From the NCBI GenBank assembly GCA_048213135.1, contig PS015093.1, positions 62,001 through 97,298 of the forward strand: a DNA stretch of 35,298 nucleotides. Direction: 5' to 3'. The notes beneath the pieces were generated by a model that made no database searches, was not told where the DNA came from, and was given only the letters and a program-made list of their open reading frames with translations. A program made the translations under genes and the position numbers. Positions 716-32,374 of the stretch are shown piece after piece. Position 1 is the first letter of the stretch, and each line of letters starts with the position of its first letter. This DNA comes from Reclinomonas americana ATCC 50394 (lineage: Eukaryota).

Positions 716-1021
716 ATGAACCCTGAGGACTTTGCCCCCCCTGTCGATGGTGCGTCCATTATGCTCATGCTTTGCTGCACGTCCGCCCAGTAGTGACTGA
801 CTTTGTCTCTTCTCCATGCAGCGTCGGCTGAGTTCAAGACTGGCTGGGAGAGTGGCCTGCACCCGCGCACAGGCGCATGGATGTTCCACATGCCCAGCGT
901 TGCGTCTTTTCTCTCCTCCTTTTCTCATGTTCTTTCTCTTCTCGCTCACCTCTGCTTCTATCATATACAGGAGCAATACGCTGAGGGCTTCTTCGCGGCC
1001 AAGAGCGCTGCGGGCTGGTAA
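716..1021 (+). CDS. 53-aa microprotein, 3 exons (716-749, 822-898, 971-1021): MNPEDFAPPVDASAEFKTGWESGLHPRTGAWMFHMPSEQYAEGFFAAKSAAGW
   Basis: A-rich leader ACAAACAAACAAAACAAATCATC before ATG; two 72-nt GT-AG introns with branch-like CTGAC/CTCAC and pyrimidine tracts; exons sum to 162 nt; C/G-ending codon bias. Confidence 0.7.
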
Positions 1022-1253
1022 TCGCTTGCCATGAAGTAGGCACCCTCCTCCGCCTCTCCCACGAGTGTGTTGGAGTGTACGTACGGGCTGCGTGCCTTTT
1101 GGTGCAAGTCACCGCCACCATCTATCTTTTTTCCGTGTTTTTTCGATTGTGTGCGTCCTTTCTATAATCCGCGTTGTGCGCGGGGATGCCACGTGATGAA
1201 GCCGCTGATTGTACTTCTGGGAATTGTGTAACATGCAAACAACTACAAGGGGG

Positions 1254-1789
1254 TTATCTGGCGGGAGGGAGGGGTGCCAGGTGCATGGATTCGAGGGCGC
1301 GCATGGCCTCCTCCATGCTGCACACAAAAGATGAGTAGGTGTGGCAATACCGCACAGAGCTACAAACAACGTACGTTGGTCTCTGGGTCGGGTCGTATTG
1401 CAGACAGTGGACCATGAGCTGAATGAAATCAGGCGGCAGCATGGTTCCGCTCTCCTTGTCGGCCAGTTGTCGCATGCGCTCGCGTGACACACTGAGTGCC
1501 AGGGTACCTGCGCGTCTGTTTGCGTAAGTGATCGAGAAGCGACGAGGTTACAAGACAAGCGAGGGACGCACCGACTGCCAGCTGATGCAACACTGACATG
1601 GGATTGAGATCGGTGAACGGGCGTTGCTGGTGGGCGAGTTCCCACAGGACCACGCCGAAACTCCACACATCGGCTGCGAGAAAGGGGGCAAGTGAGGCAG
1701 AGGGTCTCGCACCTGCTTCCGAATGCAGAATTCCCAGCCTCCTGGCGCTTCCAGTCCCGCTCCTTGCCTGTCTCTTTTCCAGTAACTGC

Positions 1790-1824
<35 letters not shown>

Positions 1825-4912: not shown

Positions 4913-4975
4913 TGTGCGCAGTCTTCGTGGGTCCTGTGTGACACAGTCTTCTTTCCGTCATATTGTCAACAGTCC

Positions 4976-7356
4976 ATGCGCAGAGTGCTGCTTCTGTTAC
5001 TGCTTTTGGCAGTCACAGTACGCGCACAAGGTCCCTTGCCTCCACTGCACATCAACCTTCCATCACGCCACTCACTCTCCCATTTGCAGAGTTGCTCACA
5101 GATCAACATTTGCACACTCACACTGACTGGTCATCGTCGTCTTCTCCGCGTGTGCGCACTGGTGACTTGTGGTTGCTCCGCGAACGCATCCCCGACGCAT
5201 CTGGAGTGGAAGCATTCCTCTTTGATGCGGATGAGACGCACAAGTCATTCGCGCTCTCGTTGAATGGCTTTGACTGGTTGCAGGATGCTGGTACGAGTGT
5301 CTCTGCTGGTGATGCTGTTACATAACGCATGTTGAGAGCTTCTCTCGTGTGTCTACAGTGGCAGAGGCTGTGGAGAAAGAGAAGCTGGGCCTCGGAGCGT
5401 TGCATATGACGGTGTATGTCATGCGGAAGAAATTTGAAGATGAAGGCGTGATGCCTGAGTTGTCGTCGATGAAGGTGCGTGTGACGACTGAGATGCTTTG
5501 TTGCGCCGTGTTGCGTGACTGGGAGACAGACGGCTGCACCGGGAGTTCGCACTGCGGGCAAGCGACCGGTGGTGCCGAGGCGCACGGTGGGACTGTTTGT
5601 GGATGGTCGCGTGCATACGTTGTTGGTGGAGGCTGATGGCTCGGATGTGGAGGCTGCTGGTGCGTGCGCGCAAGGGTGATGATGTTTTTTTCGTGTGACT
5701 GATAGCCTCACGTTGTCGTCGGCCAGTGGCCAAGTTCGTGTCGACCAGGACGATTGAGAAGGAATTCGTGCCGGCAATGGTGCACGCTGTGCGTATGCAG
5801 CTGGAGGCACACGATCCGGAGGTACGTCACTCTTTCCACTGTCTTGTTGCGCTGTCTCACACGTTCGTACACCACAGCCGTCGCAGTTGCCGTACAGCAT
5901 GGCCCGCATGCAGTATCTCCGCAAGGGCTTTGTGGTGCCTCTCACCGAGCCCGCCATTGTCGAGGAGAATCCGGTGGTGGTCATGGTGGATGCGCTGCGT
6001 AACCACGTGGGCGTGCTTGGTGCGTTGTCGCCCTGCCTTCCCTCCCCTTCCCTCCCCTTTCCCTCCCCTTTCCCCCCTTTCCCTCCCCCTTCCCTCCCCC
6101 TTCCCTCCCCTTCCCTCCCCTTCCCTCATCCACTGCTTTGCCTGACACTTGATGGCAGCCGACGACCCGCGAAAGCCTTCGTACCGCTGCTCCTTTATTC
6201 AGCATCCGTTCCCCCAGAGGAAGAAATGTGCGCCGCTGATTGCCGCTGCACGCAAGTGGGTGGAGAACAATGTGGAGGTGCATCTCCACATCACTTCCCT
6301 CCTCGCCTCAGTTCACTCCTCTCATCGCCTGTGATGCAGCGTGTCGCCACACACTTCCTGCCCCCGCCGCCACCCACATCGGAACCGCCACCCCTGCCGC
6401 CACCGCCACCACGCAGTCCCTACTTTATCGGTTCCGACACCATGTCGGGCGCCGAACTTGCCGCGCTTTCCGCCGGCGTGCGCAGCGTCGGCCGTGTGCG
6501 CCCGTGGGAGTGCTCGTACCGCAACGGACTGAAGGAGAGCACCGGTCGCAACGAGCCGTCGGCTCCCGAAGACAACCTCGCCAGCTCCTTGTTTGTCAAG
6601 TCGCAGCCACGGCCCGTCGTTGGCCAGCTGGCCACGATCGTGCTCGGCGTGTTCTCCATGGACGACAAGGAGGCGCAGCGTGACGACTTGCGCGAGACGT
6701 GGATGCGATACCCCAATGTGTATCACCGCACGCGCAACCCCGAGGGCTCGGTGCAGGTGGTGTTCGTGTTGGGCCGGCCGCGCAACGCGGAGCTGGCCAG
6801 CCGGTTGCGTGCCGAGCAGGAGAAACACGGCGACCTGTTCTTCTTGGACATTCGGGAGAACGTGAACGCCGGCAAGATGCACGACTGGCTGTCGTCCGCC
6901 GCGGATCACTTCCGCGGCACGAACGTGCGCTACGTGGGCAAGTGCGACCACGATGCCTTTGTGCGCACCGTGCAGCTGGAGCGCGAGTTGTCCAAGCTGC
7001 CGCGTGAGCGGCTGTACTGGGGTGCCTCGCTCGTCGGCTATCGGGACGGCGTGGCGCTGGACTACATCATCTCCTTCACCAACCTGCTGTCGTGGGATCT
7101 GGTGGAGTGGCTGCGCCGTGCACCGCTGGGCAGTCTCGAGCACCTCGGCAACGACGACTGCGCCACGGGCTCATGGTTCGCCATGGAGAACTTGCCGGTG
7201 CACATGGTGGGCGACAGCCGCTTCCACGACTACCTCGGCAAGCTGCTGGCCATCATTCCCGAACCGCTCAGCGAGCAGACAATCGCCGTGCACCGCGTTG
7301 ACAGCCGCGACTTGCTGGATCTTCTCATGCGCCAGTACCCGTCAGAAGACGAATAA
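4976..7356 (+). CDS. GT31-family (beta-1,3-galactosyltransferase-like) glycosyltransferase, copy 1, 8 exons, signal peptide
   Basis: MRRVLLLLLLLAVTVRAQ signal peptide; 7 GT-AG introns; Pro-rich linker; GT31 motifs RDDLRETW, VVFVLG, LRAEQEKHGDLFFLDIREN, YVGKCDHDAFV (DxD), LYWG, NDDCATG. Confidence 0.85.
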
Positions 7357-7467
7357 TATGCGTCCTATGGTGGTGGAATACAGGTGCATGCATGACGATC
7401 CTCCGATATCGCTTACATGAACGTTCGCGTCCGTCCTCGCCCTTCGCCAACCGACTCGCTGGCATCC

Positions 7468-9863
7468 ATGCCACGCACGCAGTCAATGCCGCTTCTGCTG
7501 CTGCTACTGCTAATCACCGCAGTATGCGCACACGATGGTACGATGCACACGCACAGTGTTCGCGCGCTTTCTTACACACACTCTCTCTCTCACACACACA
7601 GCGACTCACACTCACGAGAATGATCACACACCACCGCGCCCACCATCGCCATCGTGGACACTGTCAACAGGGTCATCGTCATCGGCCAGACAACGTGTGG
7701 GCGACATGTGGTTGCTGCGTGAGAAGGGATCGCACATTCCGGGCTTCACTCTCACTGTGTACGATGCGGACGAGAAGTTCAAGACCATTCCCATTCCCTA
7801 CGCTGGCTTTGTGTGGTTCGAGGACGCAGGTGAGGGAGTGAGTGAGAGTGAGAGAGTGAGAAGATCGCGCGAAAAGCCAGCTTACCATTCCTCCGAATGG
7901 CATGCAGTGGTGGATGCGATCACCAAGGCAAATGCAGGCTTCAATGCTGCTCATGCGGGACTGATGGTGTGTCGGCAGCTCACTGCGCGAGACGGCGTGT
8001 GGCCGGAGCCTGCGCAGCTCAATGTTGCGCGTACACGTGCTTGTTTTCGTCCGCTGAGTTGTCTGTTGACTTTTGTTGTGCAGGCGGTGGCACCGGGAGT
8101 TCGCACCTCGGGGAAGCGTCCGGCTGTACCGCGGAGGAGAGTGGGTCTCTTTGTGGACGGCCGTGTGCGCATCTTGTCGGTGCGAGTGGACGGTCGGGAT
8201 GTGAACGAAGTCGGTATGTATGTCTCCTGTTGTTTTCCTCTCTTGTCTCTTCCGCTCACTCGTGTTGTCGGCAGTGTCGTCGTTTGCGTCGGCGAATGCG
8301 ATCGAGTCGGTGTTTGTGCCTGCCATGGCACTCGCAGTGCATCGTCAGCTGCAGACAAACGCCGAAGAGGTTCTGTTGCACGGCATCGGTTTTCTCAAGC
8401 GTGAGAATTCATCTCACATCGCTGCGCGTGTTGCAGCCCCTGGATGTGCCTATCGGCATGTCCCGCCTCCAGCACCTCCGCAAGGGCTTCGTGGTGCCTC
8501 TCACCGAGCCCGAGGAGGCCGTTCAGCACCCAGTGGTGGTGATGGTCGGCGCCTTTCACCACGATGTGAACACTCTTGGTGCGTCCACTTGTCTCCTGTT
8601 TGTCACTCCTCTCCCTCACACTCCGTCGTGTGTTTGTTTGCAGCCGACGACCCACTGCAGCCGTCGTTTCGTTGCACGTTCATCCGACACCCTTTTCAGG
8701 AGAGGAGCAGATGCGCACCTCTCATCGCTGCAGCGCGCTCGTGGATCGCGGCGAATGCAGAGGTTCGCACTCATATCCTCCCTCTTTATCCCTCTCACCC
8801 TCTCGTGCCTCACCCGCCCATGACACTGCAGCGGGTCGCCATTCACTTTCTGCCTCCACCACCACCCACCCTGGAGCCGCCACCATTACCGCCACCGCCA
8901 CCACGCAGTCCTTACTTTGTCGGCTCGGACACCATGACTGGCGCCCAGCTGCTGGCACTTGCCACCAGCGGCCACCCGAACGTGGGTCGCATACGACCGT
9001 GGCGGTGCTCGTTCCAGACCTTTGATGGCTTCACGGGGCACGCTGAGCGAACCCGCTACACCGTGTCGGATCCCGAAGACAACGTCTTCAGCTCCATGTT
9101 TGTCAAGTCGCAGCCACGACCCGTGGTTGGGCGGATGGCCACCATTGTGTTGGGGGTGTTCTCCATGGATGAACGGGAGGCGCAGCGTGACGACGTGCGC
9201 CAGACGTGGATGCGATACCCCAACGTGTATCACCGCACGCGCAACCCGAGTGGCTCCGTACAAGTGGTATTCGTGCTGGGCCGACCGCGCAACGCGACTG
9301 TGGCTCGACGGTTACGTGCGGAGCAGGAGAGACACGGCGATCTGTTCTTTGTGGACATTCTCGAAAACCTCAACTCTGGCAAGATGCACGACTTTCTCGT
9401 GGCGGCAGCGGATCACTTCCGCGGAGCAAATGTGCGCTACGTGGGCAAAGTTGACCATGATGCCTTTGTGCGCACCGTGCAGCTGGAGCGTGAGCTGTCC
9501 AAGCTGCCACGCGAAAGACTCTACTGGGGGCCAGGACTGGTGGCGTACCGTGACGGAGTGGCTCTGGACTACACAGTGAGCTTCATCAACCTGCTGTCGT
9601 GGGATCTGGTGGAGTGGGTGCGACAGGCACCGTTGGGCAGCCTGGAGCACTTGGGACTCGACGACTGCACACTGGGTTCGTGGTTTGCTACGGAAAATGT
9701 TCCGGTGCACTTTGTGGGCGACAGCCGCTTCCACGATCTGTTCGGCGCCGCCGACGCCATCATCTCGGAGCGACTGACAGAGGAGAGCATCGCGGTGCAC
9801 CGCGTGCACACTGGTGACATGCTGCGGCTGTTCATGCGCCAGTTTCCACCCGACGACGAGTAA
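7468..9863 (+). CDS. GT31-family glycosyltransferase, copy 2, 8 exons, signal peptide
   Basis: MPRTQSMPLLLLLLLITAVCA signal (alternative ATG at 7486); the same 7 intron positions as copy 1; motifs RDDVRQTW, YVGKVDHDAFV, LDDCTLG. Confidence 0.85.
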
Positions 9864-9922
9864 AATCCATTTTGAGTGAGAGAGCGATTTGGTTGAAAAA
9901 AACGAAGAAGACGGACATGCAT

Positions 9923-12316
9923 ATGCGACGAGTGCTCCCACTTGTGTTGCTTGTGCTGCTGCTGGTCACTGCTGCCTGTGCACACCAAGGTGGGGTGTTC
10001 ACACGCGCCCATACACGGAAGAGCATGCAAGATTTTCACTCTCACAAACATGCATGCAGCAACTCACACTCGTGAAGAGAGTCGCACATCATCACCACCA
10101 GCGCCACCACCTCGACCACCGCCGACGTGGACATTGTCGACGCCGGCACCAGAGGGCGACACATGGCTGCCTTCCGAGTCAATAGGCTTCAATCTCATTG
10201 TGCACGACACGGACGAGGAGGAGCGCACGATCTTCATCCATATGCGGGCTTCACGTGGTTCGAGGATGCAGGTGCGACATGGGGGAGTGGAAGTGAGGGG
10301 GCGGGGAGTGAGTTGACATGCTTTTTGTTTTTGGTGTCTGTGTTGATATCAAGTGCGCTTGCACACACAACACAGTGTTGGATGCTGTCAGCAAGGCCGA
10401 GATGGGATTCGGCGCCGCTCAGCAGGGACTGGGATTGTGTCGGCGGCTCACTGCAGAGGAAGGCTCGATGCCGAAGCCTTCACAACTTGGTGTTACGTGC
10501 CTGTGATGCGCGCGTGGCGTGAATGCTACTGCTGACTTTGTTGTGCGCAGGCGGTGGCCCCGGGAGTTCGTGCGTCGGGGAAACGACCGGCTGTACCACT
10601 GCGCAGAGTGGGTCTCCTTGTGGACGGCCGTGTGCGCGTCTTGTCGGTGCGAGTGGACGGTCGTGATGTGAACGAAGTCGGTGCGTGCGTCTGTGTTGTC
10701 CTCTCTTGTGTTCTCATCCTCACTCGCTGTGTGTTGACGACAGTGTCGTCGTTTGTGTCGGCGAATGCAATCGAGTCGGTGTTTGTGCCGGCCATGGCAA
10801 TGGCAGTGCACCACCAGCTGCAGACGAACACCGAAGAGGTTTGCGTTCATCGTCGTTCACTGCTGGTATCGCCTTGCTGAACGTGCGTTTGTGTTTAGCC
10901 ATTGGAGGCACCGTACAGCATGGCCCGCATGCAGTACCTCCGCAAGGGCTTCGTGGTGCCTCTCACCGAGCCCGAGTTGGCCGTTCAGCATCCGGTGGTG
11001 GTGATGGTCGGCGCCTACCACCACCATGTGGACTTGCTTGGTACGCGTCCACTCGACTCTCTCATCCCCATTCTCTCCCTCCCCTCACACTCTTGCCTGT
11101 GCTTGTTGGCAGCCGACGACCCGCTGCAGCCGTCGTTCCGCTGCTCACTCATTGGGCGCCCCTTCCCGGAGCGGAAACGATGTGCGCCGTTGATTGCCGC
11201 CGCACGCAAGTGGATCGAGAACAACGTGGAGGTACGTGAGACGTTCCCTCAGCTCCCCCCTCCTTCCCTTCTCACACGTTGACAATGGCGCTGCAGCACG
11301 TCTTCACGCACTTCCTGCCTCCACCACCACCCACGCTTGAGCCGCCACCACTGCCGCCGCCACCACCACGCAGTCCCTACTTTGTCGGCTCGGACAGTAT
11401 GACTGGCGCCCAACTGCTGGCGCTCGCCGACAGCGGCCACCCGAACGTGGGTCGCGTACGACCGTGGGTGTGCTCGTACCGCACCATCGATGGTTTCACC
11501 GTGCATCGCTACACTGGACTGGCCCCCCAAGACAACGTCTTCAGCTCCCTGTTTGTCAAGTCACAGCCACGCCCGGTTGCTGGTCGACTGGCCACCATTG
11601 TGTTGGGTGTGTTCTCCATGGATGAGAACGAGGCGGATCGTGACGATGTGCGCGAGACGTGGATGCGCTACCCCAATGTGTATCACCGCACGTACAACCC
11701 AGAAGGCTCGGTGCAGGTGGTGTTCGTGTTGGGCAGACCTCGCAATGCGGATCTGGCCCGACGGCTGCGTGCCGAGCAGGAGAAACACGGCGATCTGTTC
11801 TTCTTGGACATTCTCGAGAACATGAGCTCCGGCAAGATGCACGACTTCCTCGCCGCGTCGGCCGATCACTTCCGCGGCACGAATGTGCGCTACGTGGGCA
11901 AGGCCGATCACGACGCCTTTGTGCGCACCGTGCAGCTGGAGCGCGAGCTGTCGAAGCTGCCGCGTGAGCGGCTGTACTGGGGACCGGGATTGGTGGCGTA
12001 CCGCGACGGAGTGGCTGTGGAGTATGCGGTCAGCTTTTTGAACCTGCTGTCGTGGGACTTGGTGGAGTGGGTGCGCCGCGTGCCGCTGGGCAGCCTGGAG
12101 CACCTGGGACTCGACGACTGCACGCTGGGTTCGTGGTTCGCGATGGAGAATGTGCCGGTGCACTTTGTGGGCGACGCCCGCTTCCACGATCTATTCGGCG
12201 CCACCGATGCCCTCGTCGAGGCGCGGCTGACCGAGAGGAGCCTCGCGGTGCATCGCGTGCGCGGCGGCGACATGCTGCGTCTGTTCATGCGCCAGTTTCC
12301 GCCGGAGGATGAGTGA
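9923..12316 (+). CDS. GT31-family glycosyltransferase, copy 3; 1-nt deletion in exon 2 (pseudogene or sequencing error)
   Basis: MRRVLPLVLLVLLLVTAACA signal (in-frame ATG also at 9917); same intron positions. ATC-CA-TAT at 10236-10243 corresponds to ATT-CCC-TAC (IPY) in copy 2. The catalytic exon is intact (YVGKADHDAFV). Confidence 0.8.
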
Positions 12317-12826: not shown

Positions 12827-14446
12827 ATGAGTGTCAAGTTCAACTGGGCACGGCTGAGCTCCACTGCCACGAGTGTGGAGCTCACCAACACTCTGAACAC
12901 ATTTTTCGCCGCTCAACAGCAACAACAGTCGACTTGGCCTTCCTTTCTGGGAGCCGTTCGTGTGACCGATCTCTCTCTCGGTCCGGTGAGTCACACATAC
13001 ACACACACACACACTCACACACGCATAGTGAGGGAGTCAAGAGTCGGAGAGTGAGAGAGAGGCGCGCGTGTGTGTGCGCGCGTGTGTGATGTCGTCAATG
13101 CTCGTCCTTTCAAACCGTTGTGTTGTCTGCCTTTGTNNNNNNNNNNNNNNNNNNNNNNNNNNNNNNNNNNNNNNNNNNNNNNNNNNNNNNNNNNNNNNNN
13201 NNNNNNNNNNNNNNNNNNNNNNNNNNNNNNNNNNNNNNNNNNNNNNNNNNNNNNNNNNNNNNNNNNNNNNNNNNNNNNNNNNNNNNNNNNNNNNNNNNNN
13301 NNNNNNNNNNNNNNGTGTGTGTGCATGTGAACGATTTGTAAGAGAACCGGAGGGAGAGCAGTATATTATCGTTGGTGGATTCCTTCTCGCGCGCGCGCGC
13401 GGGCATCAGGATTCACGCGCGCGGTTATGAGATGCTCATTCTCGCATCTTTCTCGTGTTCAGGATGCTCCGACGGTGCAGCTGATGAACATCTCTGGCGC
13501 GACGCCTCCCATGTGCCACGCACGCACTCGCGCATTGGAGGATCGGAATGGCGGGTTGCGCTCACTGGCCTCGATCAAGAGACCNNNNNNNNNNNNNNNN
13601 NNNNAGCACCGCCGGCTGCTGTCCGCGCGCCGGCGGCAGTGGCGGCGGCGGCGGCTGGGCGACCGGCAGCACGTCTCCCGCCAAGACCACATGCGCGGTC
13701 ACAGCAACAACAACAACAGCACCATTACATGCAGCAGCACGCGGCTGCAATGGCGATGATGTCGCGGCGATTGGTCGATGAAGACGATAGTGATAGTATG
13801 GCTGAGGTCGATGTGGGCCTGCGTGGTCCGGTGCGGCTCGTGTCGTCGCGCTCCGCGTCGAGTTTGAATGACTTGCACTCGGGTCCGCCGTTGACGCCCA
13901 CCAGCTCGGACAAGTCGGCGGTGAGCGATGCGGACTCGATGTCGCTGGGCTCGAGTGATTCCATGTATGGTGATTCGCGGCCGGCCACGCCCACGCCGCT
14001 GTCGGAGCTGGGAGGCGCTGCTTCTTCGTCTTCTACAACGACGACGACGACGACGACGACTACCCCGCACTCAAGGCATCCCTCGGCGTCGGCCTCCAAC
14101 GCGGGCTGGTCGCAGCTGGCCGGCTCGCTGGCGTGCATGTCGGCGTTCTCGATGCCGGGCATGATGCCGACCCGTTCGCGAGTGTCGCGTGCCGATGCGC
14201 GTGAGAACGTGCAGGCCAGCATTGCGTTGCGCTGGCTGTCACAGCTCTCGTTCAGTCTCGAGACGGAGCTGGTGCTGTTGAATGAGCCTGTGCCGCGCTT
14301 CTTGACGCTGCCGCTCCGCATCACCGTCTCCAAATTGTACCTGTGCGGTCGGCTCGAGGTTGCTCGGAGTCGCACGCACCTGTCCATGTACTTTCACCGC
14401 GCCAAGGACCCAGTTGCGTTGTACTCTCTCTCTCTCTCGCCCACCA

Positions 14447-14477
<31 letters not shown>

Positions 14478-14911
14478 ACGTACTACTACTACTACGTACT
14501 ACTACTACTACTNNNNNNNNNNNNNNNNNNNNNNNNNNNNNNNNNNNNNNNNNNNNNNNNNNNNNNNNNNNNNNNNNNNNNNNNNNNNNNNNNNNNNNNN
14601 NNNNNNNNNNNNNNNNNNNNNNNNNNNNNNNNNNNNNNNNNNNNNNNNNNNNNNNNNNNNNNNNNNNNNNNNNNNNNNNNNNNNNNNNNNNNNNNNNNNN
14701 NNNNNNNNNNNNNNNNNNNNNNNNNNNNNNNNNNNNNNNNNNNNNNNNNNNNNNNNNNNNNNNNNNNNNNNNNNNNNNNNNNNNNNNNNNNNNNNNNNNN
14801 NNNNNNNNNNNNNNNNNNNNNNNNNNNNNNNNNCGTACGTCGTACGTCGTACGTCGTCGTCGTCGTCGTCGTCGTACGTCGTACGTCGTACGTCTCGTCT
14901 CGTCTCGTCTC

Positions 14912-15008
<97 letters not shown>

Positions 15009-19000: not shown

Positions 19001-22000
19001 CGGCGGCGAGAGTGAGAAGCGACCGAAAAAAAGAAACAAAGGGAAAAACACACGAACCCAGACTCCAGGTACGGCAGCAGACCATCGACGAGCGGTTTCA
19101 GCGCACCGTCAGCGACAAACACAACCCACGGATTGGATGCCAGCAGGCGAGCAAGCGACTGCGGCGCTGCGGAGGACTCCGACGACAGCGGCGGCGGCGG
19201 AGGGGGCGAGCACAGCAGCGGGATGAGAGAGGCGACGGCAAAGGCTGAGGTCGGAGTGGAAGCTGCGTGCTGCACCAGCCACGTGCACACACTGCATGCA
19301 TGCATTAGTCAGTGGCAATGATCACGTCAGAGTGGTGTCGTTTCACGGATCGTCAACTCACCGCGACAGCGACAGTGGGTGTCTGCACATGGTCAGCATT
19401 GCATTCACGATGCGCAGGACGCAAGTGGCCAGCTGCAGGTGTGGATTCACAGGCTCTGGCGGATCCCACGATGGTCGCACCGCGTGCAACGACACCCACA
19501 ACGGTGCCTGACGTTCACTCTCCGACACGCCAGAATATTCGTCGTCAAACAAATTGCGAAGATCAAGAGCGAAGCCGGCAGCAATCCACTCGGGCGGCAC
19601 CGCCTCGTGCTCGACGACAAACATGTACAGCTGTCGACAGCCGTGTGAGAAATCGCACATATTTGCACGCAACAGGACGGGCACAGACAGACAATCACAC
19701 CTCCAACATCATGTCCACAAAGTGGTCGAGGCAAGCGGTCGACTGCAGACGCTCTAGCAAGCTGTAGGCAGTGTTCGTGATCAACACCGCAGTGTCAAAC
19801 CAAAACATTTGGTCCTGCATTGACAAAAAAAAAAGGTATGTGAGTGGCAACTCGCCACACTAGCGCCCCCGGACGAGAATCATCAANNNNNNNNNNNNNN
19901 NNNNNNNNNNNNNNNNNNNNNNNNNNNNNNNNNNNNNNNNNNNNNNNNNNNNNNNNNNNNNNNNNNNNNNNNNNNNNNNNNNNNNNNNNNNNNNNNNNNN
20001 NNNNNNNNNNNNNNNNNNNNNNNNNNNNNNNNNNNNNNNNNNNNNNNNNNNNNNNNNNNNNNNNNNNNNNNNNNNNNNNNNNNNNNNNNNNNNNNNNNNN
20101 NNNNNNNCGCAAGAGCGCACCAGCACTGGCACTTCGCGCTGCACCGAGGCCAATGCACAGTGCCGAATGATGCACACCATTGTGGCAGTGAGCGTGGCCA
20201 TTAGTGTGCCACGCAGTACAGGTGGAATCGGCGGCATCGATATGAAAACATCGGCACCGCTGGCAGCTCCGGAAGTCTTCCAGGCCTCGCTCGTCAGCTC
20301 GCTGTTGACAACCATGCCAAGAATCGACATGTCTGCCAGCGCAAACTCAAGCAACTGCAGACAAAAGTAACAAGAGTGAGTCAGATATGTGAGACAAGAA
20401 AACACGCCGGTCACGTCACGTCAGCACCTTGACACCCAGGCGGATCATCTTGACACGCAGCAGTGTCGACTGAATCCTCGGAGCCAACTGGTCGATGATC
20501 AGTGGCTCACCAACGCCCGTTGTCGTCGACACTTCGGCGAGCCACGATACCAAACCGGTGACCTGTGGGAAGTGAGTTACATAGGCCAGGGTGTGAGCGA
20601 GAGGGAGAGGAGAAATGAGAAGGGAGAGGGAGAGAGGACGATAACGAGAGAGAAAGGAAGGGAGGGAGAGGAAGAGAGGAAGAAAGGGAGAGAGAGGGGG
20701 AGAAGTGTGCGTGCTTCGAGAGAGATTAGAGCACGCAACTCCGTCCGATTCCAGCACTCGCAACGGCGCCAACAATGCCGTCAAAGTGCGTACCGCCACT
20801 GGATGACAGAAACAGAAATCAACAACAGGATAAGGAACTCATTTTGCCGGCACAGAGCGCAGCGCGCATGTCAAACCATTGCTCGTGTCCATGGCTTTCT
20901 GCTCAATGCTGGCGAGAATGACCTTGGAGAAGCACGCAAAGAGTGTAATGGAAGCGAGGTCGTCGAGCACTGCCTGTACCAGGAAGCACGCAGCGTCGGC
21001 CTGTGCGCACACACATGCGATGAGCGGCTGCTATCATCGAAAGAGCAGAGAAAAAAGGAGGAGACAATTTGACGCAACAAGTCGCGCCTCACATCCGTGC
21101 TGCAGCAGCTGGTGACCGGCGGTGGCCGCGGCTGGCGACGTCGGCGAAAGAAGGGGCTTGTTGTGAATCGAGGCCACCATGCGGCACACCGCGTGCATGG
21201 CCTGCGGATGGGCGAAAAAGGTCTGCACGACCACCTGATGGCCACACTGCGACTCGCTGATTTCACACAACACGTGAATCTCCGACTCCACAATGCTGAG
21301 CGACTGACGCGTGGGCGCCTTGCGATCGGAGCAGCTCGCGGGCGGGAAGCCAGCCACACGATCGACACATCGATTGCGCGCCTCCTCACCCAGCACCACT
21401 CGCAGCTGGCGGGTAACGGTGAATGCGGCGAGGTGGGAGCGAATCTGCACCATCAGTTGCGCCGCCAGCAGCCACTGCAGCTCTCGCACTTCCAGCACCT
21501 CCAGCGGATCCACCGACAGCTCTTGCGGCTCCGGCACGCCGTGCATGGTCTCCATCAGTCGATGCAGGGAGGGTCGATTGCACAATAGCCATGCAAGGCT
21601 GCGGTGGAGAAGGACAAAGAAGATGAGACAGAGGTGACATATGCTTCGCAAGAAAACAGCAAGACACGCAACTGCATGGTACTGCCAGGTCCCTCGTCCC
21701 CAGCGGCCGGCTCACCAGACAAGCTGACGCGCAATTGACGCGCTCGAGGGTGCGCCGCGAGACTTGCGCTGGCATCGGCCGACGACAACACCATGTTCAA
21801 CACACGCAATGCCCGTCGCGACCACTGATTGTTGCCAATGATGCCCGGCAACTCGACCATCAGGTCCACAAGCGAGGAAGACTGCGCGGCGCCCGTGTAC
21901 AGCAGCGAACGACTCACACAACGCCGAATTCGCGCAGCACTCGTTTCATCGCCCCAGTCGGCCATGTGTGCGGCGGCCGTCCAGCCTCGTGCGCCAATGG

Positions 22001-25000
22001 CACACCGCGTCCACAAGCGCGGATCCGGCTGCGAATACAACGAAGAGAGAGAGAGAGAGAGAGAGAGAGTGAGAATATGCGGTCTGCAGAATCGCGAACA
22101 CAGCATGCACACCTCGCCCCCGTCTCGACGCGGCAGAGCCACGGTCTGCGGGTTTGGCGGCACGGAGAGTACGGTTCGTCCGAGAGCAGATGGCGCAAAG
22201 ATGGCCCGCAGTTGCTCCAGATGCGAATACGTGTGCTCAATGTCACCGACGGGGCGCAGACTCGTCACCACCGTGCCAAACACTGCAATTTCTGCACTCA
22301 TCGATTGCGCCAGTTCCTGCAGGGAAGCAAGTGTCAGCCACATTTCTGAAAAGTCACATGAACACACACACACACAAGACCTTCAGCGCTCCGTCAATCG
22401 CGGACATGAAGGGAGCCATGCGGATCAATGCCACGGCCTGCTCGTAATCCATCTGGCTCATGATGGCATGCACCGCCGCCCACAACTCCGTCAAAAAGTG
22501 CGTCTGATCCAGCAACCGCGAGCGGTCCATTACTGCACGCACGCATCGCACATGAGCACACGCGCGATACCACGTAACGAGAGGGAGACAAACACAAACA
22601 CACACACAACGCAACAGATCGTGACGGCACAGAGGAGGGCGTCGGATCGGAAGCGCGGAAGCAGAAGCGCCAAACGCGCGTAATAACTCCATTCCGCGCT
22701 CTCATCGGAGCGTGGCCACGGAGCGCTCCATTCCTCACGTGGTCGCTGTCGAACAAACGAGCGATAGACCGCCGGGTGCACAACTATCGCCTCCGCCAGT
22801 ACTGCCAGCTCGCGGACACACGAAGCCACGGAAATGAAGCGACTCAACGGTCGTCTGCCTGCACCGTCACCCATTTTCTCGTCGGTGCCATCGTCCTCGT
22901 TGTCGTGCTCATCGTCATCATCATCACCACCGTACGCATCCAATATCCACTGGCACAGCGCGTGCACTAGCCGGTCTCCAATTGTCGTGGCCAGCGATTG
23001 CAGGCCGGCCACTTCTGCACCTCGTGCCTCGTCATCAAACAGTGCCTCGAGCACGGCCAGCACCAGACGTGTGGCCGTCACGAAGCGCGCGTCAAACGCA
23101 GTAACACGATCCCACGACGGTCGTGGTACCTCACCACCTGCACCGTCAGCGTCAACACCGTCGTCTTCTTCCTCCCGCAGGTTTCCCAAATCACCGCCGA
23201 ATCCCTCCTCTAGAACGTAAAGCGACGCGTCCACGGCATCGTTAACCAGCGATGCCGACAACGCCTGCAGTCGAATACCGAGATACCGACACTCCTCTAC
23301 CACAGTCACCATTCTTCGCAACTCTTCCGTCGTCCAAAAACTGTGACCTCGCGTCATTTCGTCACCGTCACTCAACATGGACACATCCCCCTCTCCTCGT
23401 TCTTCCTGACTCCGTGTCGCTGGATGCGATCTCGTCAACTCTGTCACCACCTTGTAGACCTCTGTAGAAAGAGCAGTCAGCGGAACCACCGCTCGTCCGT
23501 CCCACAGCGCCTCCTGGCGCCGCCACATGGCATCTTCCTCGAGCAGTGTTGCCATCTCAATCACTTCGACATTCTCCTGCGCGGCGTCATCGTCGGCAGG
23601 GTCCGACGTGTTGGTGGCGACCGACATGTTGTCGCCACGCGGCGCACCATCGTCACCACCACCAGTACCCTCCTCGTCCTCGTCGTCGTCGTCGTCATTG
23701 ACACCCGTCATTCGAGTTACCGCAGAGGCAGTCGTAGTGCGAGATCGTGAACCAGTAGGTTCGTGAGCGGGCGGAGTGGTAACAACTGGCGGCACCGCAC
23801 GACTGGCAGTATCGGCCGACGGAAGCACAGCGACTCCATGTGACGGCAGTGGCCGCTTCTCTCGCACGGGTTTCGGGCGCGCCGGCGGGATCTCGTCGAG
23901 ATCAGGAGGCTCGGGTGTCGAGTGCGCCGAGTTACGGTCCCAGTCACCGTTACTGCCGGGAGCAGAGGAAGAAGAAGAGGTGGCAGGAACCACGACCACT
24001 CCACTCTTCGCCGTCTGTGCCGACGACTCCGACGAGAGATCAACAGTCACTCCGTGACGACGGTGCTGCTGCTGCTGTTGCTGTGATTGTCGCCCGGCAG
24101 CAAGAGGCGGAGGCGGTGGTGTGGAGACACCGCTGGCCGCTGCAGTAGGCGACCGATCTGTAACCGCCTGTGAACGATTGAAACGCTGCCGTCGTCGCTC
24201 CAGTCGTTGCATGTCATCCAGAGCGCCGTCGAACTCCAACGAAGACGACGAGAAATCCAGATGCGCACCACTTCCACCGCTGGAGCCACGCTTGCCGTGC
24301 AGAGCCCGTGCCGTCGTTGGAGACACCGGCGTCACTGGTGTATCGGGTGGACCCTGCGTTGCGGAGGTTGCTTGCGGACTGTTCATGACAGCTGCTGCTG
24401 CTGCCGCAGCCGCCGCCGCCGCCGCCTCGCCTCCCGTCTGCGCCACATACGGCGTTCCCCACACACACAGAGTCAATGCCGTAAACGCACCCCGTACCAC
24501 CAAGTGCTCCGTCACAATCTGCAACGAGGGACATCATGCATGTGAGAGACAGATTCGATGTGACATGCAACGATGTGCACACACACACACCTCATCAGCG
24601 ACGAAAAAGTCGCAGTGCTGCTGCTGACCGGCAAACTCGCACGTGTGCTGATCGCCACTACCACCATCTCCATCACCGTCAGTGCGAATGCGCACAGGCA
24701 GCATGCCAGCCTCGACCTCCGAAACCTGCATGCATTGGCATGTCATGGAAAGTCACACACACACAGCATCTCTCCCGCTGTCGCTCACTCACCGGTGCCG
24801 ACACCGCCGCGGCTGCAGTGAGCGGCTGATAGAAGACAGTGAACGAGAAGCGATCCGGCTGCGTCGCCCCCACGTGCGTCTGCAGTCGCGGATGCGCGGC
24901 GGCGCCCAGAGGAACCACCTGCAGGCGTTCGACGCGCACCGCCTTTTGGAATCGCACGCCTTCCACTCGCACAGCAGGCGGAGTCACACCGCCATCACCT

Positions 25001-25266: not shown

Positions 25267-28200
25267 ATGGAGCGTCGCGTGCAGGTCTCCTCCCGCTCTT
25301 CCCGCCCTTCCCGCCTGTCTCTCTGTCTTACACACTCTCTCTCTCTTACACAGAGGTTCCCCAATGTGGTGGACTTTGTGGCCAAGGCGGAGATGCGTGC
25401 GCGCTTTCGCATTCGACCGTCGCAGAACACGCGACACCTGATGCGCGGTGAGATGACCGAGGACATTGCGCAGAATGTTGACAAGTGCGCGGAGGATGCG
25501 GTGAGAAGAAGAAGAAAGGATGAAAAGGAAGTTGTCTTTTCGCGATCCGGTCATTCTCATGGATATTTCCGCACGTAGGCGTCGGTGTTGAGGGTGTTTC
25601 GTCACCTGCGACGCATGCAGCGATCAAAGGTCACTGGTGAAGGTGATGCCGACGACCCCACCATGATGGTCTGTCTACACAAGCATGAGCTGTTGTCTGG
25701 TCATTGTCAGCTCATTCATCGACATCGTGCAGGTCGTGGCCAGCCTGCAACTGGACTACTACTCACTGGTGTCGTCGTACAAGGCCAAGTGGGTCACACC
25801 GTTGATTCTGTGTGCGCCACTGGTGGAGCAGGCGTTGCGGCATCTCACGTATCCGCCTCTGGTGTCGGTGACCATTACGAGGGATGCACCGATTGTGCCC
25901 GACTGTTCTTCGTTTGTGGGCTCGCTGCTGCGGGCGCACACGTTGTTGCAGGAGCTGCGCATTGTGGAGCACGAGTGTGTGTTGGAGTTGCCGGAGACGC
26001 GGGCAGAGTTGAACGAGACGATTGCCCGCGGTCACTTGCGGCAGCTGCACTTGCAGGCGTGTGGCATCAACGATATGCAAATGGTGGAGCTGTGCGCGGC
26101 GTTGCATGCGCCGGGTAATGTGCTGAGCGATTTTTCGGTGGCCGGCAACATCATTAGCAAGTCGGAAACAATGGCTGCGCTGCGTGACGCGCTGGTGTCG
26201 CCACACTGTGCGGTGGTGGCGTTGGATGTGCGCGACTGCTTCATGTCGCAGCCGGACCTCGTGGCGCTGTCGGCCACTGTCGGGCGACCGGAGTCACGCA
26301 TCGAGCGGTATCTCTTTGATCAGTGTTGAGTGAGACTCTGTCGCTGTTGACGCCGGGGCCTCGTGATCTCACACCGACAATGTGTGTGTGTGTTGCACAG
26401 GCTCGCTGCAGTGCTTTGATCATGTGGAACCTCTGGCGCCACTGGCGCACAGTCGATGTCTGCACAGTCTGCTCTACTCGTTCCAGTGCACCTGCAACAC
26501 GTCGAGCACAAGCAGTTGCACAAGTGCTTGTGCCTCGAGGTGTCTGTCCGTCATGATTTACATTGCTGAGCCGTTTTTTTGGGTGCAGAACCGCTCGAGG
26601 ATCGCGACGCAGCGCTGGAGGAGCATGCGGAACAGACGCTGGCCAATGTGCTCTGTCTGCCGACTATGGAGACGGCGTCGTTCCGCGTGTCGTGCTACCG
26701 GCCACGATGTTTGCATTGGACATTCACCCACGGTCATCACCTCGCACACGCCTTGAGCATGGCCGCCTCGTTGACAGACTTGAGCTTGCTTGGTGCGGGA
26801 AAGAAGGACGAGGATGTGTTTAATGGACAGGTTGCTCACCACCCTTTCCGTTTGTGCCGCAGAGGTGCCGTTCACGGATGCGGCTGGCATTCAGTTCTTC
26901 GAGGCGCTGAAATCGGCCCCTGCCCTGAAAATTGTCACTCTTGATCGTGCGTACTTGTTTTGCCAGCTTTTGCATCTCCCTCTCCACTCTCGCTAATGCT
27001 TTTCACATGGCTGCAGGCAACGAATTCACGGCGAATTGTTGCACGGCTCTCCTCGACGTCATCAAGGAGACGCAGACGATTGAGACTTTCTCACTCTACG
27101 GTGCGTAATGAGAAGTGAGAATTGTGTGTCCGTGCGTGGTATCTCACTCGAACGGTGGGCGCAGACTCACCAATCTTCAACTTGGGCGACAAGCCGCGCA
27201 CGGACATTGCCGAGGCAATCGCCACCACACGAATCAAGCACCTGTCATTGCGGTTGCGTCCTCCTGCTCTCTTGTCTGCTCTACGTTGCAGCTCACCACC
27301 CACTCGCAGAGCTGCGTGGCTTGGCGTCGATGGCGGAAGTGCCGTGGCCGATGGCATGCAACTGAATACCACGATGGAGTCGCTACGGCTTGTCTGTTGC
27401 GTGCTGCTTCCTCCCTCTCTCTTTTCCACGTCAGTGAACGCTCACTGTCTCCGTTCGGCAGCCAACCGCATCGGCTCTTCTTCGGCCAAGATCATGCAGG
27501 CCGTCAAGGCGCATCCCACGCTGAAGAGGCTGGAATTGTGCGTACCAGCGTCGTACCAAATTCTCCGCACGATTTCCTCATGGTGGTCGCACACAGGTCA
27601 CGCAACTGGATCCGAGACTCATGTATGGACGCCCTGTACGAGTTGGTACAGCAGTCGACCACTCTCGAGCAACTCGAGCTGGACTCCAACGAGTTGAGTC
27701 GTGGCTGTGAGGCCATCATTCGTGCGCTCATTGACAATCCGCGCACGAATCTCAAGATTCTGGCCCTGACCGGTCTGTGTGTGCCTCTTTTCCCTTCACC
27801 TCCATCAGCAGCTGGTCACTCACCTTTGTCGTCTGCAGGCAACTACACCGCGTGGGAGACGGTTGACGTGCTGCCGTACATGGTGGCCACCAACACGTCG
27901 CTCACGTGCCTCAACCTGGCCGACACTCTCGAACTGCCGCACCGACAGCGGCAAGAGTTTTTGAAGGGCGTGGCACACAACATACACTTGCAGTCGGTGA
28001 ACTCGCTGGAGGTGATGCGGCGAGGTGCGTCCATCATATTGAAAAATGGTGTCGTTCTGTGTTTTCATTTCCTCACGAAACCAACAAGCAGACGACGAGC
28101 TGGTGCTCCTCTCCATGGTGGACCTCAACAAGGAGTACAAGCAGCTGCAGAGCATGTGGGCGGTGCTGGAGGAGGCCGAGGCCGAGTTGGCCACGATTCT

Positions 28201-28378: not shown

Positions 28379-28411
28379 CCGCAAGTGGGGGGAGGGTCGG
28401 ACGGGGGTGAT

Positions 28412-31038
28412 TCACCACGGTGCACCGTCTGTCAGTGAATCCAGTAGAATGTCCATTGGCGCCCGCTCCACCGCCGGTGGTGGTGGTGGCGCGGCACTGC
28501 TCCCGCCCTTTCTTGTTGCACCCGTCCCCGGCGCAGTGGCAGCACTGCTCCGCTGCGCTGCGGCCACCTGCCGCTGTCGCTTCCACGCATGCTTCATCCA
28601 CTTTTCCGTGGCCTGGATCGCGTCAAACTCGGTGCTGCTGGCCTCGGAGCGGGCGGTGGTGGCACTGAGCGACGGTCGCTCGCCAGTTGCCACAGCCGAC
28701 AGGCGCATCGGCGAGCCAGTCAGCGGACCGCCGACCATGGCGGGCGCCGGTGTCACCGCCAGTGACGCACCTCGATCGTCGACCCGGAACAAATCGTCGG
28801 AGAGATCGTCATCGTCCACCTCCTCATCTTCATCGTCGTCATCTTCCTCCTCCTCCTCCTCATCCTCTTCGTCCTCGGCCTCCTCCTCCCCCTCATCACC
28901 ATCGTCGCCGACGACACCGTCCTCTTGCCGACCGGGACGCCGCACATCACTTCGGTCGTCGTCCGTGCCAGTCGACACACTCTCGTCGTCGCTCGGCTGC
29001 GGAAATATAGAAGTGAGACGCACAAACACACACAAAGAAACCCCAACAAGACAGCTTCCTCACCTCTAGCACTTCGATATCGCTTCCGGCAGCACCTCCA
29101 CCGCCGAGGCCACCCCACCCGCTGGCGGACTCGGGCAGCGCCACTGCCATACCGTCCAGCAAGTCTCCCATCAGACCCATCCCTCCGCCGCCGCCTCCGC
29201 CACCACCACCACCACCGTCGTCATCAAGTTGCAGGATTGGCAACTGCGCCGGGTGAACGGGAAGTGGATCGGTGAAGAAATAATCGTGCTGCAGAGCCTC
29301 GCTGGCCGTGATGCGCCGCGCCGGATCGTACACCAACAGGCGAGACAGCAGCGCCAGCGCACCGGGGGTGGCACGTGGCACAAGTGACTGTGCGCGACAC
29401 AGTGAGGAAAAGTCGGCAAGGAAAGCAAAAAGAGGGCCCGTCACACCTCCAACGGCAGCGCCGACATGTCGGGAAACGAGATCTTGTTGTAGTCCGGCAG
29501 CTCCTCCAAGCCGGGCCAATTGTGTGCGTCGGGTGTGCCGAGTGCGGAAATCACTCGCTGCAGCTGATCAATGTCACTCTCGCCGGCAAACAGCGGCGCA
29601 TGATTGAGCATCTCGGCCATGATGCAGCCGACGCTCCACATGTCCGCCGAGTAATCGTAGTGGCGCGAGCCAAACAGCAACTCGGGCGCACGGTACCAGC
29701 GTGTGGCCACCTGATGACTGTACGGTCGATCGGCCGCGTTGCCGCCAAACACGCGCGCCAGACCAAAGTCGGCCAATTTGAGCACACCGGAGCGCGACAG
29801 CAGCATGTTGGCCGGCTTCACATCGCGGTGCATAATGTGCTGTGCGTGGCAGTGCGCCAGTCCACGCAGCATCATCACCAGCAGGCATTTCATCTCGCCC
29901 TCGGTCAGCAGGCGCGGGAGGCGGTGCACGAGGTGGTGCAGGTCGGTGTGCATGAACTCAAAGACCATGGTTAGCTCGGATCCGTTGACGAAGACGTCGT
30001 ACATGGGGACCACCTGGGGGAGGGAAAGGGGGTAAGGGGGAGGAAAGGGGGAGGAAAGGGGGAAGAAAGGGAGAAGGGCGAAAAGAGGGAAGGGTGGGGA
30101 AAGGGGAGGGGGAAGGGGGAAGGGTGAGGAGAAGAGAGGAGAGGAGAGGGTGAAGGAGAAGGTGAAGGAGGAGGAGAAGAGAGGAGAGGGCAAGGGAGAG
30201 AGATTGGAGAGGAGAGGGCAAGGGAGAGAGATTGGAGAGGAGAGGAGAGGAGAGGAGAGGGTGAAGACAAAGGCGAAGGAGAAGGTGAAGGAGAGGAGAA
30301 GGTGAAGGAAAAGAGTGAAGGGTACAGGGGGAACAGGAAGAGGGAAGGGAGACTGAGAACGTCGACGTGAAGTGAGAATGAGAAAAGGAAGAGACTGTAG
30401 GGGAGAGACAGCAGGAGGAGAAGAGGAGAGGAGAGAAGAGTAGAGGAAAGGAGAAGGTGAAGGCGAGGAGAGGGCGAAGGGGAATGGAAGAGGGAGACTG
30501 AGAACGTCGACAAGAAGTGAGAATGAGGAAAGGAAGAGACTGAAGGGGAGAGCGGAGGACTGACAGAGAGGACAGAGAGACAACAGACAGACAGGGACGA
30601 GGAGAGACAGCAGGAGGAGAAGAGGAGAGAGGAGAGGGCGAATGGAAGAGGGAGGGGAGGGGAGACTGAGAACGTCGACGAGAAGTGAGACAGAGGAGAG
30701 GATGCTCCCAAGGGGAGAGAGGAAGACACACAGAAAGACAGCAGAGGGGGAGAAGAGCAGGGAGGGGAGTTACCCAAATTCCTCAACATTCTCATGCGAC
30801 AACTGCTGCAACGACTGCATCTCACGCAGCGCATTCGTCGGATTCCGGTCGGGTGTCTTGCGCAGTCGCACACACTTGAGCGCCACAGTGCTCCCAGTGG
30901 GAATATGCCGCGCTTTCAACACCACACCAAAAGTCCCTTCAAAAAGAACGACACAGACATGAGAGAGTGAGAAAAAACGCACGCAAGCGAGGAGAGCAGA
31001 CCTTCGCCAATGCGCCCAAGTGTCGTATACTCTTCCAT
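28412..31038 (-). CDS. CDK20: Cyclin-dependent kinase 20 (CCRK/LF2-like), 5 exons, with long acidic C-terminal extension
   Basis: MEEYTTLGRIGEGTFGVVLKA, PTNALREM, HRDVKPANML, LKLADFGLARVF, RPYSHQVATRWYRAPELLFGSR, WPGLEELPDYNKISF, HDYFFTDPLP. The YSHQVATRWYR and LPDYNKISF motifs are CDK20-typical. Confidence 0.9.
30014..30787 (-). repeat. Expanded CDK20 intron 2: polypyrimidine (sense) low-complexity tract with three imperfect tandem units of about 145-170 nt
   Basis: GACTGAGAACGTCGAC..AAGTGAGA recurs at about 30351, 30496 and 30664 on the + strand. Confidence 0.85.
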
Positions 31039-31094
31039 CGCTCACCGGCGACACGCAAACAAAGAAAACGTCCTGTGCAGGACACTTTTCACGA

Positions 31095-32374
31095 ATGCTC
31101 TTGTGCGCGACGCTCACTCGCCGCCTCTTCTCCATCATGAGTCGCCGACGACAAGCAGGCTACTTCGACCCGCCTGCAGCAAAGACCGCACCTGCAACAA
31201 CAATACCCGTGCAGGAGAAGAAGGAGGACACAAAAGAAGAGATGCCGAAGTCGAAGCCGCGCAGCAGAGAGCCTGTGCTCATCACAGAGCCCAGTTACGC
31301 CTCACACTGACTCAGTGCGCTCACCAGTGACTCATCTGTGCGCGTGTCCTCAGCATCCGCGCATCGAGAACTTCGCGTAGAGGCGCCCGTGTCGCCCTCG
31401 GACTCGCGCGTGCTCACTGTGAGTCTCCTCGGGCGCCCCAACGCCGGCAAGTCGACGCTGCTCAATCGCATTGTGGAGCGCCACGTGTCCATCACCTCGC
31501 CCAAGCCGCAGACCACGCGCACGGCCTTGGCCGGGGTGTGGACTCCATCGCCAGTGCAGATTGTCTTTTACGACACCCCGGGCGTGTATGGCGGCGACAC
31601 AACCGCGCGTTTGGATCGTCCGTTGACTGTGGTGGCGTGGGATGCAGCGTTCTCCACTGACCAGGTGCTGTTGGTTGTTGATGTGGCGGCCACGGAGGGA
31701 CTGCGATCGGTGCACTCGTTTCTTGACGCGTTGGAGCGCGACGTCGACGCGGAAGGCAGCGTGCGGCGAGTCACGCCTGTGCTCAACAAGGTCGATCTGA
31801 TCAAGGACAAGCGTGCGCTGTTGGCGGTGATGCGCGACTTGTCGTTGCGGCCGAGCGTGGGCGAGATCTTCCCGGTCAGCGCGGAGACAGGCGAGGGCGT
31901 CGACCCACTGCGCGAGTATCTGCGCAAGGCCGCGCAGCCGGGCGAGTGGGCGTACCCGGCGCACGTCGATGCCGCGCTCGGCGATGTCGATCGTGCGGCG
32001 GAGCTGGTGCGCGAAAAGGTCTATCGATACGCGCATGGCGAGGTGCCGTACCAGGTCAAGATCATTACGCGCGGGTGGACCGACTTCCGCAACGGCGACC
32101 TGCGCATCGATCAGGATATCATGGTCGACAAGCTCGGCCAGCAGGTTGCGCGTCTTGCATCGGTCTCTGTTGCACGAGGGGAAAGACTCAGCGTTTTGTG
32201 CAGAAAATCCTCGTGGGCAAGGGCGCTGCGGTGATCCGTCGCATCAGCACAGAGGCGCGCGAGGAGCTGGAGCAGCTGTTCTCACGACGAGTGCATCTCA
32301 TCTTGCAAGTGCGGCAACGGAAGCGCGGGGCAGGCGATCGGAGAGCAGCCGCCGACCATTCATCGGTCGACTGA
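31095..32374 (+). CDS. ERAL1: GTPase Era, probably mitochondrial (ERAL1-like), 3 exons
   Basis: Arg-rich leader MLLCATLTRRLFSIMSRRRQ; G1 GRPNAGKST, ITSPKPQTTR, DTPG, NKVD, VSA; KH region EVPY...KILVGKGAAVIRRI...VHLILQV; introns start at 31294 and 32145. Confidence 0.92.

Follow-up and report, generated by a model that had tools for sequence, protein, structure and literature searches.

The window analysed here is a stretch of 35,298 nucleotides (nt) of Reclinomonas americana ATCC 50394 (contig PS015093.1, positions 62,001 to 97,298, forward strand), and the question that it raises is whether its introns begin with one frequent form of 5' splice site (donor) or with two. The ordinary donor would be G/GTNNG(T), in which the slash marks the exon-intron border, most often in the form G/GTGCGT, G/GTACGT or G/GTGAG. 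The variant donor would be H/GTT-RMG(T), which contains the hexamer GTT[GA][CA]G. Introns that begin in this way appear to be real introns of the ordinary major spliceosome that use a second frequent form of 5' splice site. A U1 small nuclear RNA (snRNA) register shifted by one base is held to be the most likely explanation, with confidence in this reading evenly balanced. All positions below are counted from the first letter of the window.

Frequency of GTT-RMG donors in the window

The first-pass annotation listed 13 GTT(G/A)(C/A)G motifs as donors. All 13 were found at their coordinates and on their strands; 27253 and 32145 have G at -1, and the other 11 lack it. Presence of the motif is no proof by itself, because the hexamer is abundant in the window, where 54 copies occur on both strands among 4303 GT sites (1.25%). 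Introns were therefore modelled with a donor-blind gene finder, a dynamic programming procedure in which any GT was allowed as a donor without cost or gain and intron positions +1 to +8 were left unscored. The score combined codon usage, the base composition of the intron starting at +9, its final 14 bases and a branch-like motif. An earlier, fully flat gene finder had produced antisense genes and long false introns and was replaced by this version, which scores composition, acceptor and branch. A listing of canonical donors plus branch by pattern was dropped as too noisy.

Gene models scoring above 15 in the donor-blind run contained 54 introns. The hexamer is the donor in 11 of these 54, compared with its 1.25% share of GT sites (binomial p = 7e-11). 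Ten of the picks had been listed before (899, 8024, 10492, 26325, 31294, 32145, 20739, 21078, 21672 and 30787), and the eleventh, 27396, is a newly added site. GTT begins 20 of the 54 introns against 16.5% of GT sites (p = 2e-4), so T at +3 is unusually common overall. The expected enrichment of RMG at +4 to +6 was also seen within the window, in 11 of the 20 donor-blind GTT donors against 7.6% of GTT sites (p = 4e-8). Of the 20 copies of the 7-mer GTT[GA][CA]GT, 10 serve as donors, another 9 are found at other places of gene models in sense orientation and 1 is antisense to a gene. Its use as a donor (10/20) is close to that of G/GT[GA][CA]GT (12/25).

A class-aware second pass, with models scoring at least 20 and then edited by hand, gave a curated set of 57 introns, namely 13 class introns, 8 with other GTT donors and 36 with non-GTT donors. 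In the editing, 8671 was dropped, 14842, 15760 and 19874 were dropped as gap-adjacent or of low confidence, and 22675 was replaced by 22615. The class makes up 11/54 of the donor-blind and 13/57 of the curated introns, about one in five; the second fraction is partly circular, as are the +5 G counts given below, because the class-aware pass rewarded +5 G donors and the class motif. The earlier figure of roughly 80 introns proved somewhat high, as 54 to 57 were modelled with confidence. The forms said to make up most donors (GTGCGT, GTACGT and GTGAGN) are present, but GT[GA][CA]G accounts for only 23 of the 57 curated donors, and the rest include GTGTG, GTCTG, GTATG and GTGCA. Within the window, the presence of a predicted class of GTT-RMG donors is confirmed.

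Sequence signature of the class

R, M and G occupy +4, +5 and +6 in 13/13 sites each, which is the definition of the class, and T follows at +7 in 9/13; at ordinary donors of the curated set, +6 is T in 20/36. G at +5 is found in 0/13 class donors, in contrast to 33/36 non-GTT donors and 6/8 other GTT donors (GTTCG, GTTTG). The base at -1 was part of no donor score. The depletion of G at this position, as proposed in the first-pass annotation, was borne out in the window: the G is present in 2/13 class donors and in 36/44 of the remaining donors (Fisher p = 2e-5). The difference holds against the other GTT donors (7/8, p = 0.002), and non-GTT donors have the G in 29/36. The -1 bases of the class are T in seven sites, A in three, G in two and C in one, and the -2 bases of ordinary donors are T in 14, A in 13, C in 7 and G in 2. 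The share of A or T at class -1 (10/13) matches that at ordinary -2 (27/36, p = 1.0) and differs from that at ordinary -1 (4/36, p = 3e-5).

The other intron signals do not differ from those of the remaining introns. Class acceptors are CAG in 13/13, a CTNAY branch-like motif is present in 11/13 and pyrimidine content is alike, although this likeness is partly circular because the finder scored acceptor and branch features. Minor (U12-type) introns have the donor consensus RTATCCTT. This donor has 0 matches in the window, and the class donors GTTGCG, GTTACG and GTTGAG are not of this type. An all-against-all BLASTN comparison of the 57 curated introns gave 38 alignments in 14 of 1596 pairs, located in CT- or GT-rich stretches, and among these introns no sequence family joins the 13 class members in the manner of introner elements (repeat introns).

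A boundary one base downstream, which would give introns of the form TT...GG, was set aside as breaking the GU-AG rule and not by data. In formal terms it could apply only to introns followed by an exon with G as its first base (7/13), and the Era homologs described below do not discriminate it because the alignment column is variable. As a separate observation, the exon after a class intron begins with G in 7/13 cases compared with 7/36 after non-GTT introns (Fisher p = 0.03, unplanned test).

Evidence at single junctions

The bacterial-type Era GTPase gene contains two class introns. Its QQ/K junction at 32145, which was first read as fixed by homology, is exact: the exon ends at residue 243 and the next exon starts at residue 244 of E. 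coli Era (1ega_A). The junction is spanned in a single alignment by 119 of 120 bacterial Era homologs, with no gap within -5 to +6. At 31294, a read-through stop lies at +14. Exon 2 of Era lacks an in-frame ATG, and a TGA within intron 31294 closes its frame, so an upstream exon is required.

The N/VV junction of the CDK20 gene at 30787, for which homology was likewise claimed, is exact by comparison with human CDK2 (11gv_A). The upstream exon aligns to CDK2 residues 14-62 and residue 2 of the downstream exon aligns to residue 64, so that residue 1 corresponds to 63. Compared with 120 CDK20 relatives, 73 of 103 junction-spanning alignments have no nearby gap. Among the gapped alignments listed, the indel lies upstream of a conserved H-x-N, away from N/VV. 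The 774-nt intron itself is almost pure polypyrimidine with several short tandem arrays, and a 19-nt motif occurs in it in three exact copies, spaced 145 and 168 nt.

Three tandem galactosyltransferase paralogs (A, B and C) share one intron position and phase, at which the donor is AAG/GTGCGTG in A (5475), AAT/GTTGCGC in B (8024) and GGT/GTTACGT in C (10492). The coding sequence next to the intron is conserved upstream and downstream (...PGVR...), and the exon has the same length in all three genes. At 10492, a read-through stop lies at +12. The paralogs share three intron positions with differing donors in all, which are GTGCGT/GTTGCG/GTTACG, GTACGT/GTTCTG/GTTTGC and GTGCAT/GTTCGC/GTACGT.

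Further support for single sites comes from reading frame and model score. For 10492, 26325, 31294, 21078 and 30787, the stretch that begins 45 nt upstream and ends at the first read-through stop contains no other in-frame GT. When single sites were forbidden, 3.0-8.6 score units were lost for ten of them. For 899, the sole in-frame alternative is GTTCTT at +30, and forbidding 899 costs 5.05. At 26325, an in-frame stop lies at +2, the next exon has no in-frame ATG and forbidding costs 7.48. At 20739, forbidding costs 3.02 and leaves a 5-nt exon, and the flanking exons score best in the predicted frame. The long candidate donor at 14413 and its acceptor, CACAG at 15138, are both in phase 0. Its region from 14440 to 15100 contains (CT)n, (ACT)n with ACGT interruptions and a run of N, then (CGT)n and (CT)n, and also (CCCTT)-like arrays. 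It is plausible that this is a class intron interrupted by an assembly gap. Together, the predicted junction positions, the displaced consensus, the loss of -1 G and the interconversion with an ordinary donor at one paralog intron position can be regarded as established in this window.

Table 1. Predicted introns with GTT-RMG donors, one comparison intron, and the genes of the window (the slash marks the exon-intron border)
Feature	Coordinates	Strand	Donor	Length (nt)	Phase	Basis or remark
Intron, small 53-aa gene	899..970	+	AGC/GTTGCGT	72	0	donor-blind pick
Comparison intron, galactosyltransferase paralog A	5475..5529	+	AAG/GTGCGTG			ordinary donor; alignment, class-aware model
Intron, galactosyltransferase paralog B	8024..8083	+	AAT/GTTGCGC	60	0	donor-blind pick
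Intron, galactosyltransferase paralog C	10492..10550	+	GGT/GTTACGT	59	0	donor-blind pick
Probable long low-complexity intron	14413..15138	+	CCA/GTTGCGT			motif; gap 14513-14833 (N run) inside
Intron, gene F	20563..20739	-	GGA/GTTGCGT	177	0	donor-blind pick
Intron, gene F	21001..21078	-	CTT/GTTGCGT	78	0	donor-blind pick; stop at +42
Intron, gene F	21599..21672	-	GCA/GTTGCGT	74	2	donor-blind pick; forbidding costs 4.18
Intron, gene F	22533..22615	-	TCT/GTTGCGT	83	1	ambiguous
Intron, leucine-rich-repeat gene	26325..26400	+	AGT/GTTGAGT	76	1	donor-blind pick
Intron, leucine-rich-repeat gene	27253..27309	+	GCG/GTTGCGT	57	2	ambiguous
Intron, leucine-rich-repeat gene	27396..27461	+	TCT/GTTGCGT	66	1	donor-blind pick, local support weak
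Intron, CDK20 gene	30014..30787	-	AAT/GTTGAGG	774	0	donor-blind pick; stop at +15
Intron, Era gene	31294..31353	+	CCA/GTTACGC	60	1	donor-blind pick
Intron, Era gene	32145..32203	+	CAG/GTTGCGC	59	0	donor-blind pick
Small gene, 53 aa	716-1021	+				carries intron 899
Galactosyl_T (PF01762) paralogs A, B, C, tandem (n = 3)	4842-12316	+				Pfam and alignment
Gene F, long multi-exon orphan	23711-17552	-				16 modelled introns, >1700 codons
Leucine-rich-repeat gene	25685-28378	+
CDK20 kinase	31038-28412	-				best-ranked homologs bear CDK20 names, mostly chytrids, 54-58% identity
Era GTPase, bacterial-type	31242-32374	+				best matches ~40% identical (maximum 41%, bacterial Era), and PDB matches

Proposed mechanism and its weak points

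In the variant donor, the guanines of the ordinary -1 and +5 positions are found at +1 and +6 at the same distance from each other, and T stands where the ordinary GT has its G. With the guanines as reference points, G-G-U-N-N-G becomes G-U-U-N-N-G, and the cut shifts to the sole remaining GU. In the proposed mechanism, U1 snRNA would pair one base downstream of its usual register, with intron G+1 standing in for exon G-1. When the site is handed over to U6 and the catalytic core, the cut would then fall at the single GU available. This snRNA pairing is what we infer for the reading of the class sites. The first-pass annotation had suggested that the lineage uses shifted or bulged U1 pairing, or a variant U1/U6 snRNA, for a mainstream donor class, and this interpretation is supported in part. 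The predictions of a shift agree with the data in a small sample, as the consensus is displaced to +4 to +7, including RMG at +4 to +6, and -1 behaves as ordinary -2, whereas the prediction of a bulge that -1 G is kept does not agree. At a wider scale, it is suggested tentatively, at somewhat less than even confidence, that the spliceosome of this lineage routinely (in about 1 intron in 5) accepts a 5' splice site in which the core paired by U1 is moved away from the cut by one nucleotide. At the catalytic stage, the extra nucleotide would be tolerated by the U6 ACAGAGA helix and the GU pocket, or these would be adapted to it, and at a given intron position donors would drift freely in either direction between G/GTRMGT and H/GTTRMGT.

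Several points weigh against the shifted-register explanation and against parts of the class itself. Predicted duplexes with a human-type U1 5' end, which may not be that of this organism, have a mean of -2.1 kcal/mol for class sites versus -6.35 for 18 ordinary donors. Because class duplexes are weak in every register, simple pairing to standard U1 may not suffice, and other factors or a different U1 may be involved in reading the class sites. The energies show no clear register and therefore leave shift and bulge undecided. A scan of the window with Rfam at E<=1 gave no snRNA (U1, U6, U5). All junctions were placed from DNA sequence alone, the gene models are the output of a finder trained on this same window, and the sample comprises 13-14 class sites in about 8 genes of one 35-kb window. 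The donor-blind finder made at least one false intron, 8671, recognised as false because paralogs A and C show that stretch as conserved coding sequence. It also moved some ordinary donors to in-frame neighbours (27553 for 27538, 28049 for 28025).

Particular sites are affected as well. In the leucine-rich-repeat gene, the donor-blind finder preferred an in-frame GT at 27244 to 27253; the latter is favoured because the I-x-x-L-x-L end of the repeat unit is kept there, as in neighbouring exons. In gene F, the finder joined a different in-frame GT, at 22675, to the acceptor of intron 22615 (giving 143 nt), and 22615 is favoured by intron length and the coding look of the intervening 60 nt only. 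Forbidding costs 0.01 for 27396 and 0.0 for 27253 and 22615, neither of which the finder had chosen. The four gene F sites rest on reading-frame logic only, because gene F has no detectable homolog.

Alternative explanations

The same displaced RMG(T) consensus is predicted if U1, and later U6, pairs normally with G+1 and U+2, one U of +2/+3 loops out and RMGU pairs in the ordinary way. In humans, experiments support a register with a bulge at +2/+3 (PMC4856993), and the change among the paralogs resembles the gain of a single intron base that leaves the exon frame intact. In a bulged duplex, however, exon -1 would still face U1 C9 and its G should be kept as it is in other GTT donors (7/8) and in the other donors as a whole (36/44), but it is seen in 2/13 class sites, whose -1 base resembles the ordinary -2 base instead. 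As the class has lost the G that a bulge should keep, the data favour the shift, on 13 sites only, and the bulge is regarded as unlikely. A dedicated variant of U1 (or U6), encoded by an snRNA paralog whose 5' end pairs directly with GUURMGU, would account for the weak pairing of class sites with the human-type U1 5' end, and a class frequency of about 20% would be enough to make a dedicated snRNA worthwhile. The acceptors and branch-like motifs are nevertheless the same as in other introns, and a variant carrying an additional base should still prefer G at -1; this explanation is considered quite improbable.

A less specific possibility is that several sites are misplaced boundaries or chance matches, in which degenerate donors and GCG-rich composition after GTT mimic a shifted consensus. 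Donors in the window are indeed diverse, with GTCTGC as a homology-confirmed example, and three of the class sites have in-frame alternatives or negligible local support. Chance and misplacement do not, however, explain why the enrichment holds over both background GT and GTT sites, why homology fixes two junctions exactly and paralogy another two, why the loss of -1 G is specific to the class, or why, out of 20 copies of the 7-mer, 19 have the same orientation as the gene model in which they lie and 1 is antisense. Misplacement or chance on this scale therefore appears improbable. The window is also part of a gapped draft with 7 N runs, in which an extra T could have been inserted at GT during assembly. 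Thirteen identical errors at one intron position, accompanied by a changed exon base at -1, are unlike random indels, and the long exons are open in frame, so an assembly artefact is extremely improbable. With these alternatives weighed, a U1 register shifted by one base is retained as the preferred explanation of the GTT-RMG donors.

Other donor forms and genes in the window

Further frequent donor forms with G at +5 are G/GTCTG (31001, 27773, 19063) and G/GTGTG (29446, 19700, 22112). The GTCTGC donor at 31001 fits the CDK alignment, with a gap in 2 of 96 spanning alignments. The plus-strand sequence GCA/GTTGCAC at 26515 is possibly a shifted counterpart of the GTGCAT donors seen at 6278 and 15760; GTGCCT, 15 nt further downstream, offers an in-frame alternative.

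The window has a G+C content of about 58%, codon third positions rich in G or C, and numerous short introns, mostly of 55-85 nt. Galactosyl_T paralogs A, B and C end at 7356, 9863 and 12316, respectively, and have a proline-rich stem and conserved intron positions. A metagenome scan with the galactosyltransferase domain found 4 loci at 30% identity, none of them a close relative. The highest identity to the CDK20 protein is 62%, in an anemone protein covering 81% of the query, and the top-ranked chytrid proteins reach 57-58%. The CDK20 and Era genes stand head-to-head, with about 200 nt between the ATG of the former at 31038 (minus strand) and that of the latter at 31242 (plus strand). For the gene F exon at 21079-21597 (173 aa), no homolog was found among proteins of 304-2000 aa, and 0 matches were obtained among 1.84 billion representative proteins. 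The 25-aa exon of the small gene at 716-1021 had no PDB match at E<=10 and no Pfam family.

The Rfam scan of the window gave 0 matches at the gathering score. At E<=1, it gave a mir-3149-like match and a weak SCARNA2-like match and nothing else. The first of these lies at 12999-13087 on the minus strand and is a sub-threshold match (38.9 bits versus a gathering score of 100, E = 4e-4) that may be a simple-repeat hairpin.

Significance

Human 5' splice sites read in a shifted or bulged U1 register are, taken together, few, and minigenes were required to prove each of them. If a fifth of introns use such sites, the organism would be a natural system for studying how the cut is fixed when U1 binds off-register. 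If true, the shifted register would also inform on the slack of the helix between U6 and the 5' splice site and on the evolutionary interconversion of donor types. On the practical side, gene prediction programs whose training donors follow GTRNGT would place splice junctions wrongly in many genes of this organism. Provided that the pattern holds genome-wide, the class would be a variant of an already known type of shifted site.

Comparison with known systems

The canonical introns of Mamiellophyceae green algae have the donor AG/GTGCGT and the branch NCTGAC, and there are few canonical introns per gene (PMC3879977, in its accessible portion). The ordinary donors and branches of the window follow the same grammar (G/GTGCGT, CTGAC/CTCAC). 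Unlike the window, these algae are described without mention of a GTT class in that portion of the source. The proteins of the window had no close relative (at best 41% identity for Era, and 62% for CDK20 over part of the query), which sets the organism apart from the sequenced genera. A literature search turned up no description of such a class of donors in organisms other than humans; its coverage was incomplete, and supplements, a frequent place for donor-frequency tables, lay outside it.

The closest likeness is with human sites. For human shifted sites (Roca and Krainer 2009, via Tan et al. 2016, PMC4856993), the available part of the later paper states that the helix of U1 with the 5' splice site is thought to be moved by one position and that, because U1 does no more than mark the site for U6, the cut is fixed at a later stage. 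INPP4A and GTF2H1, the human examples cited in the first-pass annotation, have 0 occurrences in PMC4856993. As far as the available part of that paper describes them, the human shifted-register sites resemble the class in having GU at the cut and the remaining consensus displaced by one base. They are rare among 201,541 sites, in contrast to 11/54 to 13/57 introns in this window, and their displaced core is AAGT, whereas GCGT, ACGT or GAGT is found here. The human bulge +2/+3 register also shows a likeness, as it has the GU-U-consensus arrangement with an extra U between GU and the paired core. According to the same part of the paper, this register has 68 predicted and 54 curated cases among the 201,541 sites (about 0.03%), and all validated non-canonical registers together make up 1.5% of sites. 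The class donors of this window differ from the human bulge +2/+3 sites both in their frequency, which is about 20% compared with about 0.03%, and in their loss of -1 G, which a bulge does not predict.

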